From IMG/VR virus record IMGVR_UViG_2721755646_000010: a stretch of 64,000 bases of DNA. The stretch is one strand, 5' to 3'. Below, piece by piece: positions 9,001 to 12,000 of this stretch. Made by a program: the position numbers. How positions within the stretch are numbered: the first letter of the stretch is position 1; each line of letters starts with the position of its first letter. The stretch is from a virus (Duplodnaviria; Heunggongvirae; Uroviricota; Caudoviricetes).

Positions 9001-12000
9001 TTAGTAACGGCCTGAGCGTTCCGCCAGTCCGGCGACAACTGGCGGCCCCCAAACGCCCGTCGGGGCCAACGCCAATTGAGTTGCTGAAACAGGAATATGA
9101 ACGCCGGAAAGCGGCTGGTTTTGTTTGAGTTGAGAAGTGATTTTTTACCGGGAGGAAATTTATGGAGACTGTTTTTGACGCACTGAAAGCGATGGGAAAA
9201 GCCACGTCGGTATAGCTGGCTGCGCGACTTGATATCAGTCGTGAAGAAGTACTGAACGAGCTGTGGGAACTGAAAAAGGCTGGCTTCGTTGATAAAAGCG
9301 TATACACCTGGCGTGTGGCTGATAACAACGTTCAGCAGGAACAGCCAGCGCCAGAAGAAACCACCACGGCAACAGAAGCGAAAATCTCAGAGTGCGATTT
9401 AACCGCGACGATTGAACAACGCGGACCACAAACGGCGGATGAACTGGCTACGCTGTTCGGTACAACATCCCGCAAAGTTGCTTCAACGCTGGCAATGGCA
9501 ATCAGCAAAGGTCGTCTGATTCGCGTAAACCAGAACGGTAAAATTCGTTACTGCATACCAGGTGATAATTTACCAGCAGAGCCGAAAGTTGAATCGGTAG
9601 CGGAAACCGATGGTAAAGCCTTTCCTCAGCCAGCCGGTGTTGCGTTACCGGTACAGAAAGATGCAACACAGGAAGATATTAAAACAGAAACTGTGGCGGA
9701 CATTGTGCAGTCGCTGCCATCGTTTACTGCAACGCGAGAAGATGATTTGATTTTGCCATCGCTGCATATGGCAAATCGCGAACTGCGTAGGGCGAAGAAT
9801 CATGTCCAGAAGTGGGAGCGAGTCTGCGCCGCGCTGCGGGAGCTGAACAAGCACCGGGATATGGTTGCCGGGATTTGTCGGAAGTCCGGGCAATGAGCGG
9901 ATGGTGCAGGCCTGAAATCATGATACTAACAATGAAGGTAAAATGCATCGGCAGTCTGATTGGTCGTAGTGAGGCGGCGGTCAGGATGAAAGCCCAGGTT
10001 AAGGGAATAAGCCTGATTCTGCGGGGTGATTTTCACCAGTCAACAAAATATCCGTAGCGCGATAACGGTCAAAAATTATGGCGCTGACACTTTTGTGCCA
10101 CTGGAGATGACTGTACCTAAGTTCAGGGGAGAAGAACACGTCCGGTGGGATGGTCGGGCCAGATTTAAAGGGCAGGTCATGGCTCCAGCCTGTACGCTGG
10201 CAATGGAGGCTGCCTGGCGGGAAATTGATATGGGAACCACGCCACTCAGGGATTTACTGCCGGTCCAGAGAATAAATTCCTGTTACGGTTACACCACTGT
10301 GATCTTGCAAGTGCAGGAAAGTAGGTCTACACGGTAACGCGAGTGCGTGTAACTTTTGATGTCATTCCCGTAGAAACACCGGACAAATTTTCGCTGACAG
10401 GTCATGCAGAAGGTATAAATCTGCAGATTATGGACAATTACGGATATCCGGCAAGAGCCGGAAAAAGCATGCCGCCTCTAATTCTCAGTGGAAGATGGAC
10501 TTGATTATACTCATTGCATTGTCAGAAATAGTTATCCATTAAAGGCTGGCTATTCCAAACAGGATGTTGATTACAAAAATGTAATCAACATGTAAGGTTT
10601 ATACTCTTCAATATGCGTATAATTTTCCTTATTTTGTTGACTTTAAATAACAAGCTATGCACGAGGTAAAGTCGGATAAGTTTATCTGGATGTAATATAT
10701 ATTATTTGTAGTGTTTATAACTTTATTTCATGATAACCAATAAAAGGAGTTTTTTATGAGGAACATAATGGCAGGTTTTTTAATATTCCTGTCTTCTGCT
10801 GCTTATGCTGATATCAATCTGTATGGTCCTGGTGGCCCGCATACAGCCTTGCTTGATGCAGCCAAACTTTATGCCGAAAAAACAGGTATTATAGTGAACG
10901 TTCATTACGGCCCACAGAACAAATGGAATGAAGATGCCAAAAAAAATGCAGATATCTTGTTTGGCGCATCAGAACAATCTGCTCTGGCTATCATTCGGGA
11001 CCATAAAGACAGCTTCAGTGAAAAAGATATTCAGCCTCTTTATCTGCGAAAAAGTATTTTACTGGTAAAGAAAGGTAATCCTAAAAATATCCGGAGTATT
11101 GACGACCTGACCAGACCTGGGATTGGCGTAATTGTTAATGATGGTGGTGGTACCAGTAATACATCAGGCACTGGCGTCTGGGAAGATATTGCCGGACGTA
11201 AAGGGAATATAGAAACTGTCGCCGCAATCCGAAAAAATATTATTTTATATGCGCCCAATAGCGGAACTGCACGTAAGGCTCTTGAGAATCAGCCTGGAGC
11301 AGATGTCTGGATAACCTGGGCTGACTGGGCAGCCAGTAATCCAGAAATTGGTGATGTCGTGGAAATAGCGCCAGACTACGTGATATGGCGTGATATGAAC
11401 ATTACAGTACGTCAGGATGCAAATGATGAAACCCGTCGATTTGCAGAATGGCTACAAACCGATGAAGCGGCGCCTGCATTCAAAAAATATGGCTGGACCA
11501 GGAAAGGCACTTGACATCCTCGTCCTTCAGGACGTGGATTCTTTTTCCGGATGCCGCGCCAGCGGCATGTAGGGGCAGCTCACAAAACGGAAAAAATTGT
11601 ACGCTAAGCCTCGCCAGGTGAACTGAATTCATTCCGATATGGGAATTCCCATATCGGGCGAAAACGGTTTGCTGTAACGGCAGAGTTAAGTAGGATTGCT
11701 GCGGGTGCTTGAGGCTATCTGCCTCGGGCATGAACACCAACGGCAGATAGATAAAAGCCCCACCCGACTATAAATCGAAGTGAGGCCCCTATATGCTCGT
11801 CACATATAGATTGCCTCTTACGGACCGAAAGGTCAAGGAGAAGCAGGCTATGAAGCAGCAAAAGGCGATGTTAATCGCCCTGATCGTCATCTGTTTAATC
11901 GTCATAGTGACGGCACTGGTAACGAGGAAAGACCTCTGCGAGGTACGAATCCGAACCGGCCAGACGGAGGTCGCTGTCTTCACAGCTTACGAACCTGAGG

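Follow-up and report, generated by a model that had tools for sequence, protein, structure and literature searches.

Two lesions in an ompW prophage of Escherichia coli O157:H7, an amber codon in a YdaW-like DUF1627 gene and an older stump at the paa cassette junction, are best read as ordinary prophage decay

YdaW of the Rac prophage of E. coli K-12 belongs to the same family (PF07789, phrog_630) as the first of the two genes considered here, and both lie directly downstream of replication genes (ydaV or P), although the Rac helicase loader is the DnaC-like YdaV and the loader upstream of our gene is lambda-P-like. K-12 ydaW has ~89% DNA identity to this gene over the 5' half and is also incomplete, given that the match ends at approximately query position 500, beside a lysis gene. 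The two differ in that ydaW was inactivated by a deletion, whereas the gene described here is full length and appears to be inactivated by one amber codon. The closest relatives of the locus as a whole are the PPompW prophages of O145:H28, O111:H8, and O55:H7, which are 99.6-99.9% identical to it over positions 9100-10100 and at least 99.5% identical over 9880-10075. These prophages share the gene order, the TAG-terminated stump of the second gene, the fimbrial pseudogene, and paa, but in them codon 18 is GAG and the DUF1627 gene is uninterrupted. Asadulghani et al. (2009, PMC2669165) describe the lambdoid prophages of the Sakai strain as having multiple disrupted genes and yet retaining excision and packaging. 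The accessible part of that paper scores the core functions of repressor, integrase, replication, recombination, and morphogenesis; the words "nonsense" and "amber" are absent from it, and it apparently does not discuss accessory-gene lesions. The lesions that we describe are of the same ordinary kind as those of the O157:H7 "defective prophage pool" in the accessible text of PMC2669165.

The DNA that we analyzed (the window, 64,000 nucleotides) is E. coli O157:H7 DNA with two lambdoid/Rac-like prophages, referred to here as prophages 1 and 2, which are arranged in tandem at ompW in strain TR01 (RefSeq). The two genes of interest, genes 1 and 2, occupy positions 9162-10057, at the distal end of the prophage 1 operon for replication genes, where the annotated order is replication protein P, DUF1627 protein, hypothetical protein, fimbrial pseudogene, and paa (Table 1). 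A ydaT frameshift in the TR01 annotation was considered as a further O157-specific lesion of the operon and was dropped, given that it is absent from the window. An earlier note on this DNA had interpreted premature TAG codons in both genes as decay of prophage 1. We find that, on present sequence evidence, both genes are best regarded as having lost their function, but not through parallel nonsense hits, given that the lesions differ in kind and age: very probably, a recent O157:H7 amber in gene 1 and an old cassette stump in gene 2 together represent ordinary prophage decay.

Table 1. Positions of the features discussed, numbered from the first nucleotide of the window
Feature	Position	Strand	Basis
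Shine-Dalgarno GGGAGG of gene 1	9150..9155	+	Sequence; anti-SD duplex -10.3 kcal/mol
Gene 1, YdaW-like DUF1627 gene, 244 codons, interrupted at codon 18	9162..9896	+	Sequence and homologue alignment
Amber codon TAG, codon 18 of gene 1, G>T at 9213, ancestral GAG (Glu18)	9213..9215	+	Orthologue comparison
Gene 2, 54-codon 5' stump of a ~105-aa HTH DNA-binding protein gene	9893..10057	+	Homologue alignment
Gene 2 TAG for CAG, C>T at 10055, 7-8 nt 5' of the cassette junction	10055..10057	+	Alignment
Fimbrial-subunit pseudogene remnant, frameshifted, internal stops	10062..10595	+	RefSeq annotation (identical TR01 sequence; close relatives elsewhere)
Low-GC cargo cassette, ~1.6 kb	~10065..11660	+	Homology breaks, GC
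paa, AcfC-family adhesin Paa/AdfO, intact cargo gene, 252-aa ORF	10756..11514	+	SBP_bac_11 E = 5.5e-34; annotation
Perfect 24-bp palindrome, right cassette end	11634..11657	.	Repeat search
Prophage 1 tRNA pair, CAT (annotated tRNA-Ile, reads AUA) and TCT (tRNA-Arg, reads AGA)	16479..16711	+	tRNA scan, RefSeq
DUF1627 paralogue, prophage 2, intact, 238 aa	56022..56738	+	PF07789 E = 7.9e-79, 263.3 bits
Gene 2 paralogue, prophage 2, intact, GTGA-coupled, 105 codons from GTG 56735	56735..57052	+	phrog_323
Second tRNA pair	63075-63327		Window tRNA scan

The frame of gene 1 runs from ATG 9162-9164 to TGA 9894-9896. The earlier note had placed an in-frame TAG at 9213-9215 and described the frame thereafter as homologous to the prophage 2 paralogue at 56022-56738, which both the sequence and the alignment bore out; the two genes align end to end, and the gene 1 frame stays open past the TAG for 226 codons without further damage. 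With codon 18 restored as Glu, the translation matched Pfam PF07789 (DUF1627) at residues 84-236 (E = 8.4e-93; 308.7 bits against a gathering score of 28.1 bits), and the PHROGs profile phrog_630 was matched at full length, with residues 1-242 on profile positions 1-249 of 253 (E = 6.7e-123). This Pfam score and full-length colinearity place gene 1 in the DUF1627 family as a YdaW-like member. At the N terminus, sub-threshold Pfam matches, among them HTH_20 at residues 4-44, cover a helix-turn-helix-like region at residues 4-46. Given that an in-frame stop interrupts an otherwise colinear frame and that the closest orthologues have a sense codon at this position, gene 1 is, as judged from sequence, a pseudogene by nonsense mutation.

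The earlier note had used the intact prophage 2 paralogues as the reference for both genes. For gene 1, the paralogue, with ~80% DNA identity, has GTA or GTG aligned with codon 18 and is a poor reference, and the ancestral codon, as read from the orthologous prophages, is GAG. Intact 735-nt orthologues are found in O111:H8, O145:H28 PPompW, OkiPb01683, and O55:H7 DEC5A; codon 18 is GAG in O111:H8, OkiPb01683, and O145 PPompW and GAA in strain 382634_2f. Over 1001 nt, the gene 1 region is 99.9% identical to the O145:H28 copy, and the sole mismatch is the GAG>TAG change. A 73-mer bearing the gene 1 TAG had exact matches in 292 complete genomes, and among the matches listed, every serotype-labelled genome is O157:H7, with many records having no serotype label. 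The corresponding GAG 73-mer was exact in 311 other genomes, including O55:H7 CB9615 and RM12579, O26:H11, O111:H-, O145:H28, O103, and O121. These distributions indicate that the gene 1 amber is a single G>T change that is younger than the O55:H7/O157:H7 split and is O157:H7 specific within the labelled subset. A single transversion after this split turned Glu18 (GAG) into an amber codon, which the clonal O157:H7 lineage then inherited. Translation from the one good ribosome-binding site of the gene would stop within the first DNA-binding domain, with only 17 residues made, leaving a null or near-null allele. We infer that no gene 1 protein is made from the TAG allele and, given that the amber is the sole change relative to the O145:H28 copy, that its fixation was neutral; we saw no sign of selection.

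The ATG of gene 2 at 9893 overlaps the gene 1 stop as ATGA. This coupling, and a TAG at 10055-10057 where the paralogue has CAG, had been noted before and were both reproduced here, with CAG in the aligned column of all three intact homologues (prophage 2, OkiPb01705, and JNE120393), two of which had not been part of that comparison. Intact homologues are annotated as 85- to 94-aa products under the names "DNA-binding protein" or "helix-turn-helix domain-containing protein," and the prophage 2 copy matches phrog_323 (transcriptional regulator) with E = 1.2e-25. In that copy, a sub-threshold match to HTH_7 starts at the residue aligned with the gene 2 TAG, so the stump has no helix-turn-helix. 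Even without the TAG, the frame stops 10 codons on, at TGA 10085-10087. By alignment, gene 2 is a 5' stump at the junction of a cargo cassette and not a gene whose only damage is a nonsense codon. The homology break, 7-8 nt or two codons past the TAG, was absent from the earlier note. The TAG and the junction occurred together in all seven alleles read, and the alleles carrying both include those of O111:H8, O145, OkiPb01683, 382634_2f, O103:H2, and a chicken isolate. The TAG is common to every sampled prophage with the paa cassette (O55:H7, O111:H8, O145:H28, O103:H2, and O26/O121 type) and is also found in a copy from a human faecal isolate that is just 94% identical. In 522 records, the surrounding 196-nt region has an identity of at least 99%, the allele is present in ~540 genomes, and a synthetic 73-mer joining CAG to the junction had an exact match in 0 of 539 junction-bearing genomes. 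Given this constant association of TAG and junction, the gene 2 TAG is likely to be old and not the primary lesion. Whichever of the two arose first, the part of gene 2 encoding the helix-turn-helix has been lost. The 54-aa stump is itself annotated as a protein and matches the short PHROGs family phrog_30109, and it may retain some residual function.

On the left, at ~10064/10065, homology with every intact gene 2 homologue ends at ...CGCGATA / ACGG..., and on the right, at ~11660/11661, prophage homology is back at AAAACGGTTTGC, which is at 11661 in prophage 1 and at 58565 in prophage 2. The GC content is 33-42% inside the cassette and 49-58% in the flanks. A frame scan of the fimbrial remnant region showed multiple stops, and the cassette also contains paa/adfO of O-island 57, whose product has a solute-binding-protein fold. 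The cassette resembles a moron or cargo insertion of lambdoid phages in being a low-GC, self-contained non-phage gene between early genes with abrupt homology breaks. It is unlike a clean moron insertion, however, in that it is a replacement, made at the expense of downstream genes and the 3' portion of gene 2, has no flanking direct repeats that we could find, and carries a dead fimbrial fragment alongside paa. Given that neither a flanking direct repeat nor terminal inverted repeats were found across the two junctions, entry by illegitimate or homology-flanked replacement is more likely than transposition. An older illegitimate recombination would have brought in this low-GC cassette, with its dead gene for a fimbrial subunit and its paa adhesin gene, in place of the 3' portion of gene 2 together with ~1.5 kb of downstream early genes.

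We considered whether these TAG codons might be harmless to expression or artifacts. Gene 1 could remain functional as an N-terminally shortened DUF1627 protein started at CTG 9216 or GTG 9315. RefSeq/PGAP does call a 226-aa protein (WP_077744273.1) from CTG 9216, just past the TAG, and the Pfam DUF1627 domain (residues 84-236) lies wholly 3' of the stop. Starts at CTG are very rare, though, and when candidate starts were scored by anti-SD duplex energy, CTG 9216, which has no Shine-Dalgarno sequence, reached -3.0 kcal/mol and GTG 9315 only -1.5 kcal/mol compared to -10.3 kcal/mol for the native ATG, the only one of all in-frame candidates with a good Shine-Dalgarno sequence. A sequence scan downstream of the TAG found no in-frame ATG, GTG, or TTG with such a site. 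The first 17 codons, which form part of the N-terminal helix-turn-helix-like region (residues 4-46, sub-threshold in Pfam), are kept together with the same Shine-Dalgarno sequence in all intact orthologues and the paralogue, which also counts against restart. We regard a functional downstream start as very improbable, and homology seems to have driven the choice of CTG during annotation. Still less credible is full expression of both genes by nonsense suppression or programmed UAG read-through, with the ambers acting as regulatory signals. Both TAGs are followed directly by C, and UAG-C is considered the weakest termination, or leakiest UAG, context in E. coli; the 226 undamaged codons after the gene 1 TAG also fit this proposal. 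The intact downstream frame is, however, a mark of youth, given the single difference from the O145 copy, and reading through the gene 2 TAG would yield just 10 unrelated codons before TGA 10085-10087 without restoring the protein. Intact relatives have plain GAG or CAG at these positions, and a conserved recoding signal is thus absent. None of the four tRNAs in the window (two with anticodon CAT and two tRNA-Arg with anticodon TCT) is a suppressor with a CTA anticodon, in agreement with the earlier note, which had considered suppression unsupported by tRNAs that read AUA and AGA. Rfam identified no RNA element in 9000-10100, and a promoter and terminator scan around the TAGs did no better than shuffled sequences. 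A low-level gene 1 product may nevertheless arise by UAG read-through or restart. As for sequencing or assembly errors in one genome, which the earlier note had named as what would overturn its reading, there is next to no chance that they explain both TAGs: population comparison excludes them, given that the gene 1 73-mer has exact matches in 292 complete genomes, each sequenced independently, and that the gene 2 TAG recurs in ~540, with the conserved 522-record region and the lack of CAG among the 539 junction-bearing genomes in accord.

Positive selection for the loss of gene 1 in O157:H7, for example because the protein interferes with functions of the host or a co-resident prophage, is likewise highly improbable. 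The amber allele is seemingly fixed in the sampled O157:H7 genomes, and dosage or interference among DUF1627 paralogues is conceivable, given several such genes per O157:H7 genome (with as many as 8 matching places). The O157:H7 lineage is clonal and young, however, and any early neutral SNP looks fixed in it; there was also only one event, with no convergence. Furthermore, DUF1627 has no assigned function; in the accessible part of the full-text literature we found no role for it, and it is named there just as a neighbor of the Pas sRNAs. We would also give only a slim chance to a version in which the amber is a selected, lineage-defining O157:H7 change that acts through protein loss or through leaky UAG-C read-through. 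Under protein loss, the absence of a tandem winged-helix protein might alter replication or excision of the ompW prophage or its cross-talk with the rest of the lambdoid prophages. In the second case, a dose-sensitive regulator might be held at a very low level by read-through in the leaky UAG-C context. Neutral decay remains our preferred reading of gene 1.

A single-sequence AlphaFold model of the prophage 2 paralogue of the DUF1627 protein (mean pLDDT 65) was confident only at residues 69-123, which form a winged helix. The rest of the model comprised a helical domain at the N terminus, predicted with less confidence, as well as a disordered linker and a helix at the C terminus. The gene 1 protein apparently consists of a winged-helix-like domain at its N terminus, another winged helix, a disordered linker, and, at the C terminus, a long helix. 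A sequence search of the PDB gave one marginal match, to the MntR winged helix (E = 0.5); the NCBIfam matches, to ArsR- and MntR-like helix-turn-helix models, were all sub-threshold; and every PHROGs family matched is listed as "unknown function." When the model was compared with PDB structures by Foldseek, the matches were generic proteins with one winged helix or a tandem of them (ScpB, ESCRT-II, UFL1, and MarR/ArsR) at TM ~0.2, and they are uninformative about DUF1627 beyond its fold.

Both lesions are of an ordinary kind of prophage pseudogenization, and their general importance is small. The gene 2 lesion is the scar of paa cassette acquisition that is common to all paa-bearing prophages, while the gene 1 amber provides a clean single-base marker of O157:H7 that is absent from the O55:H7 and non-O157 EHEC copies of the prophage. 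The CTG start in RefSeq masks the gene 1 pseudogene, and pan-genome and pseudogene counts will consequently treat the gene as intact. Moving prophage 1 into a laboratory host that suppresses amber codons (supE) would bring gene 1 back in part, as E18Q, which could confound experiments on this prophage.

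We conclude that the two premature TAG codons at 9162-10057 very probably reflect ordinary loss of function, in which the prophage 1 DUF1627 (YdaW-like) gene (gene 1) would be an amber allele, null or nearly so, that clonal descent has fixed, and the short gene after it (gene 2) would be a nonfunctional stump left behind when a cassette carrying paa was acquired. The region matches many E. coli O157:H7 chromosomes at 100% identity, and in the RefSeq annotation of strain TR01 two lambdoid/Rac-like prophages lie in tandem at ompW, the first carrying nleA, nleH1-2, and nleF. The local order in TR01 is a cro-like gene, ydaT, an O-like (DnaT-like) gene, replication protein P, the DUF1627 gene, gene 2, a fimbrial pseudogene, paa, and sok/hokD. 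The ydaT-family gene is an intact ORF in the window but is annotated as frameshifted in TR01, suggesting that some lesions of the operon are strain-specific.

Gene 1 has a strong Shine-Dalgarno (SD) sequence and is open after its amber codon up to the terminal TGA. The earlier note held that this downstream frame stays homologous to the intact prophage 2 paralogue, which was confirmed by sequence and by an alignment colinear across the whole length; all of its coordinates also hold. With codon 18 put back to sense, the translation matched Pfam DUF1627 (308.7 bits) and, over its full length, phrog_630, with subthreshold N-terminal winged-HTH matches at residues 4-46; by these profile matches, gene 1 is assigned to the DUF1627/YdaW family. 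A single-sequence AlphaFold model of the paralogue (mean pLDDT 65) has a winged helix at residues 69-123 as its confident part; it also shows an N-terminal helical domain at lower confidence, a linker modeled as disordered, and a long C-terminal helix. Its Foldseek neighbors were generic winged-helix proteins only, single or tandem, and literature, structure, and profile-database searches gave no known function for the family.

O145:H28 "PPompW" prophages, O111:H8, and other EHEC are 99.6-99.9% identical to the prophage 1 region, and O55:H7 is 100% identical over 196 nt of the junction region; in all of these relatives the DUF1627 gene is annotated as intact (735 nt). Codon 18 aligns with GAG in close relatives and with GAA in a 94%-identical copy, making the change a G>T transversion at 9213, the sole mismatch in 1,001 nt against the O145 copies. 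The earlier note had called for population-level comparison, and we searched complete genomes for exact matches to a 73-nt probe centered on codon 18. The TAG version was found in 292 genomes, the serotype-labeled ones among the matches listed all being O157:H7, and the GAG version in 311 others, including O55:H7 CB9615, RM12579, and DEC5A and strains labeled O26:H11, O111, O103, O121, and O145:H28, with none of 60 listed GAG matches labeled O157:H7. The mutation thus postdates the O55:H7/O157:H7 split; judged from these sequences, codon 18 became amber recently and specifically in O157:H7.

The lesion in gene 2 has a different history. Its ATG overlaps the gene 1 stop as ATGA and its TAG aligns with a CAG codon of prophage 2, all as the earlier note had placed them. 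Intact homologues (prophage 2, OkiPb01705, JNE120393) read ...TATCCGCAGCG(C/T)GATAT(C/T)GAGCTG... where the window reads ...TATCCGTAGCGCGATAACGGTCAAAA..., so that the TAG is a C>T change from CAG. These homologues are annotated as "DNA-binding protein" or "helix-turn-helix domain-containing protein" of 85-94 aa (the prophage 2 copy has 105 codons from GTG 56735), and the part absent from gene 2 is exactly their C-terminal, HTH-encoding half. Homology with all of them stops 7-8 nt past the TAG, at about 10064/10065. In its 5' part, gene 2 also has a 15-nt in-frame deletion at 9927/9928, where intact homologues have CCGGCAGTGTGCGGG. The TAG, junction, and deletion are common to every cassette-bearing allele examined (O111:H8, O145:H28, OkiPb01683, O103:H2, a chicken isolate with an additional frameshift, and the 94%-identical 382634_2f), and a synthetic CAG-plus-junction probe had an exact match in 0 of 539 junction-bearing genomes. 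The gene 2 lesion is thus old, and the second TAG is either a secondary change that goes with the replacement or part and parcel of it. The earlier note had read both genes as prophage 1 decay; loss of function stays the likeliest reading for both, but the gene 2 lesion is an old cassette scar specific neither to prophage 1 nor to O157:H7.

Beyond the break lie a frameshifted fimbrial-subunit remnant and paa, and prophage 2 homology restarts only at 11661 (58565 in prophage 2), just upstream of sok/hok. GC content in this ~1.6-kb cassette falls to 33% (33-42% over 10300-11200, spanning the distal fimbrial remnant, intergenic region, and 5' part of paa), compared to 49-58% in the flanking phage genes. 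No flanking direct repeats were found. The layout is what cargo cassettes in lambdoid phages usually show. A perfect palindrome lies directly inside the right junction. A perfect 13-nt inverted repeat, possibly of chance origin, has one arm where the gene 2 stump runs out and the other, holding a TTGACT hexamer, just upstream of paa.

Sequencing error, which the earlier note had said would overturn its reading, is refuted by the counts for the TAG and CAG-plus-junction probes. Suppression or read-through is unlikely: the window lacks a suppressor tRNA, in line with the earlier note's AUA- and AGA-reading tRNAs, and ARAGORN found only two tRNA pairs, each with a CAT (annotated tRNA-Ile in RefSeq, AUA-reading) and a TCT (Arg) anticodon. 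A conserved read-through signal is absent, and gene 2 could not be rescued, its frame meeting a stop 10 codons on anyway. Both TAGs are followed by C, and UAG then C terminates comparatively leakily; gene 1 may therefore be read through at trace levels. Restart downstream in gene 1 is also unlikely, given that no in-frame start had a usable SD (native ATG, -10.3; CTG 9216, -3.0; GTG 9315, -1.5 kcal/mol). RefSeq/PGAP annotates the O157:H7 gene as an intact 226-aa protein (WP_077744273.1, window 9216-9896) from the CTG directly 3' of the amber codon; this start is an annotation artefact that hides the lesion and leaves the pseudogene invisible. Positive selection for loss of gene 1 is likewise improbable, the mutation being a single event in a clonal lineage.

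Coordinates of features in the window
Feature	Position	Strand	Remark
ydaT-family gene, prophage 1	7111-7662		183 codons
SD of gene 1	9150-9155		GGGAGG
Gene 1	9162-9896		ATG 9162; TGA 9894-9896
Codon 18 of gene 1	9213-9215		TAG
Gene 2	9893-10057		"Hypothetical protein," RefSeq, TR01
TAG of gene 2	10055-10057
Inverted repeat arms	10038-10050 / 10630-10642		AGTCAACAAAATA / TATTTTGTTGACT
Fimbrial protein pseudogene	10062-10595		RefSeq, TR01
paa	10756-11514		RefSeq, TR01
24-bp palindrome	11634-11657		CCGATATGGGAATTCCCATATCGG
sok antitoxin RNAs (two)	11703-11852 and 58607-58781		Rfam; upstream of hok genes
STnc100	16821-17029	+	Rfam, prophage sRNA
AgvB	17031-17090	-	Rfam, prophage sRNA
Tape-measure ORF, prophage 1	32971-36213		1,080 aa
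sar-like antisense RNA	37971-38037	-	Rfam
DicF	51346-51397	-	Rfam, prophage sRNA
Intact gene 1 paralogue, prophage 2	56022-56738		238 aa

All features at 9162-10057 fall within known kinds, and the results of use, mild use at that, are limited to the first TAG as a clean lineage marker SNP, the CTG-start artefact, and the now precise boundaries of the paa cassette. The defective prophage pool of O157:H7 is well described (PMC2669165), and the lesions match it. The prophage 1 tail region (window 32971-37245 versus TR01 32577-37000) differs in coordinates and ORF layout, suggesting that late regions of prophage 1 vary among O157:H7 strains, probably through recombination among coresident lambdoid prophages.
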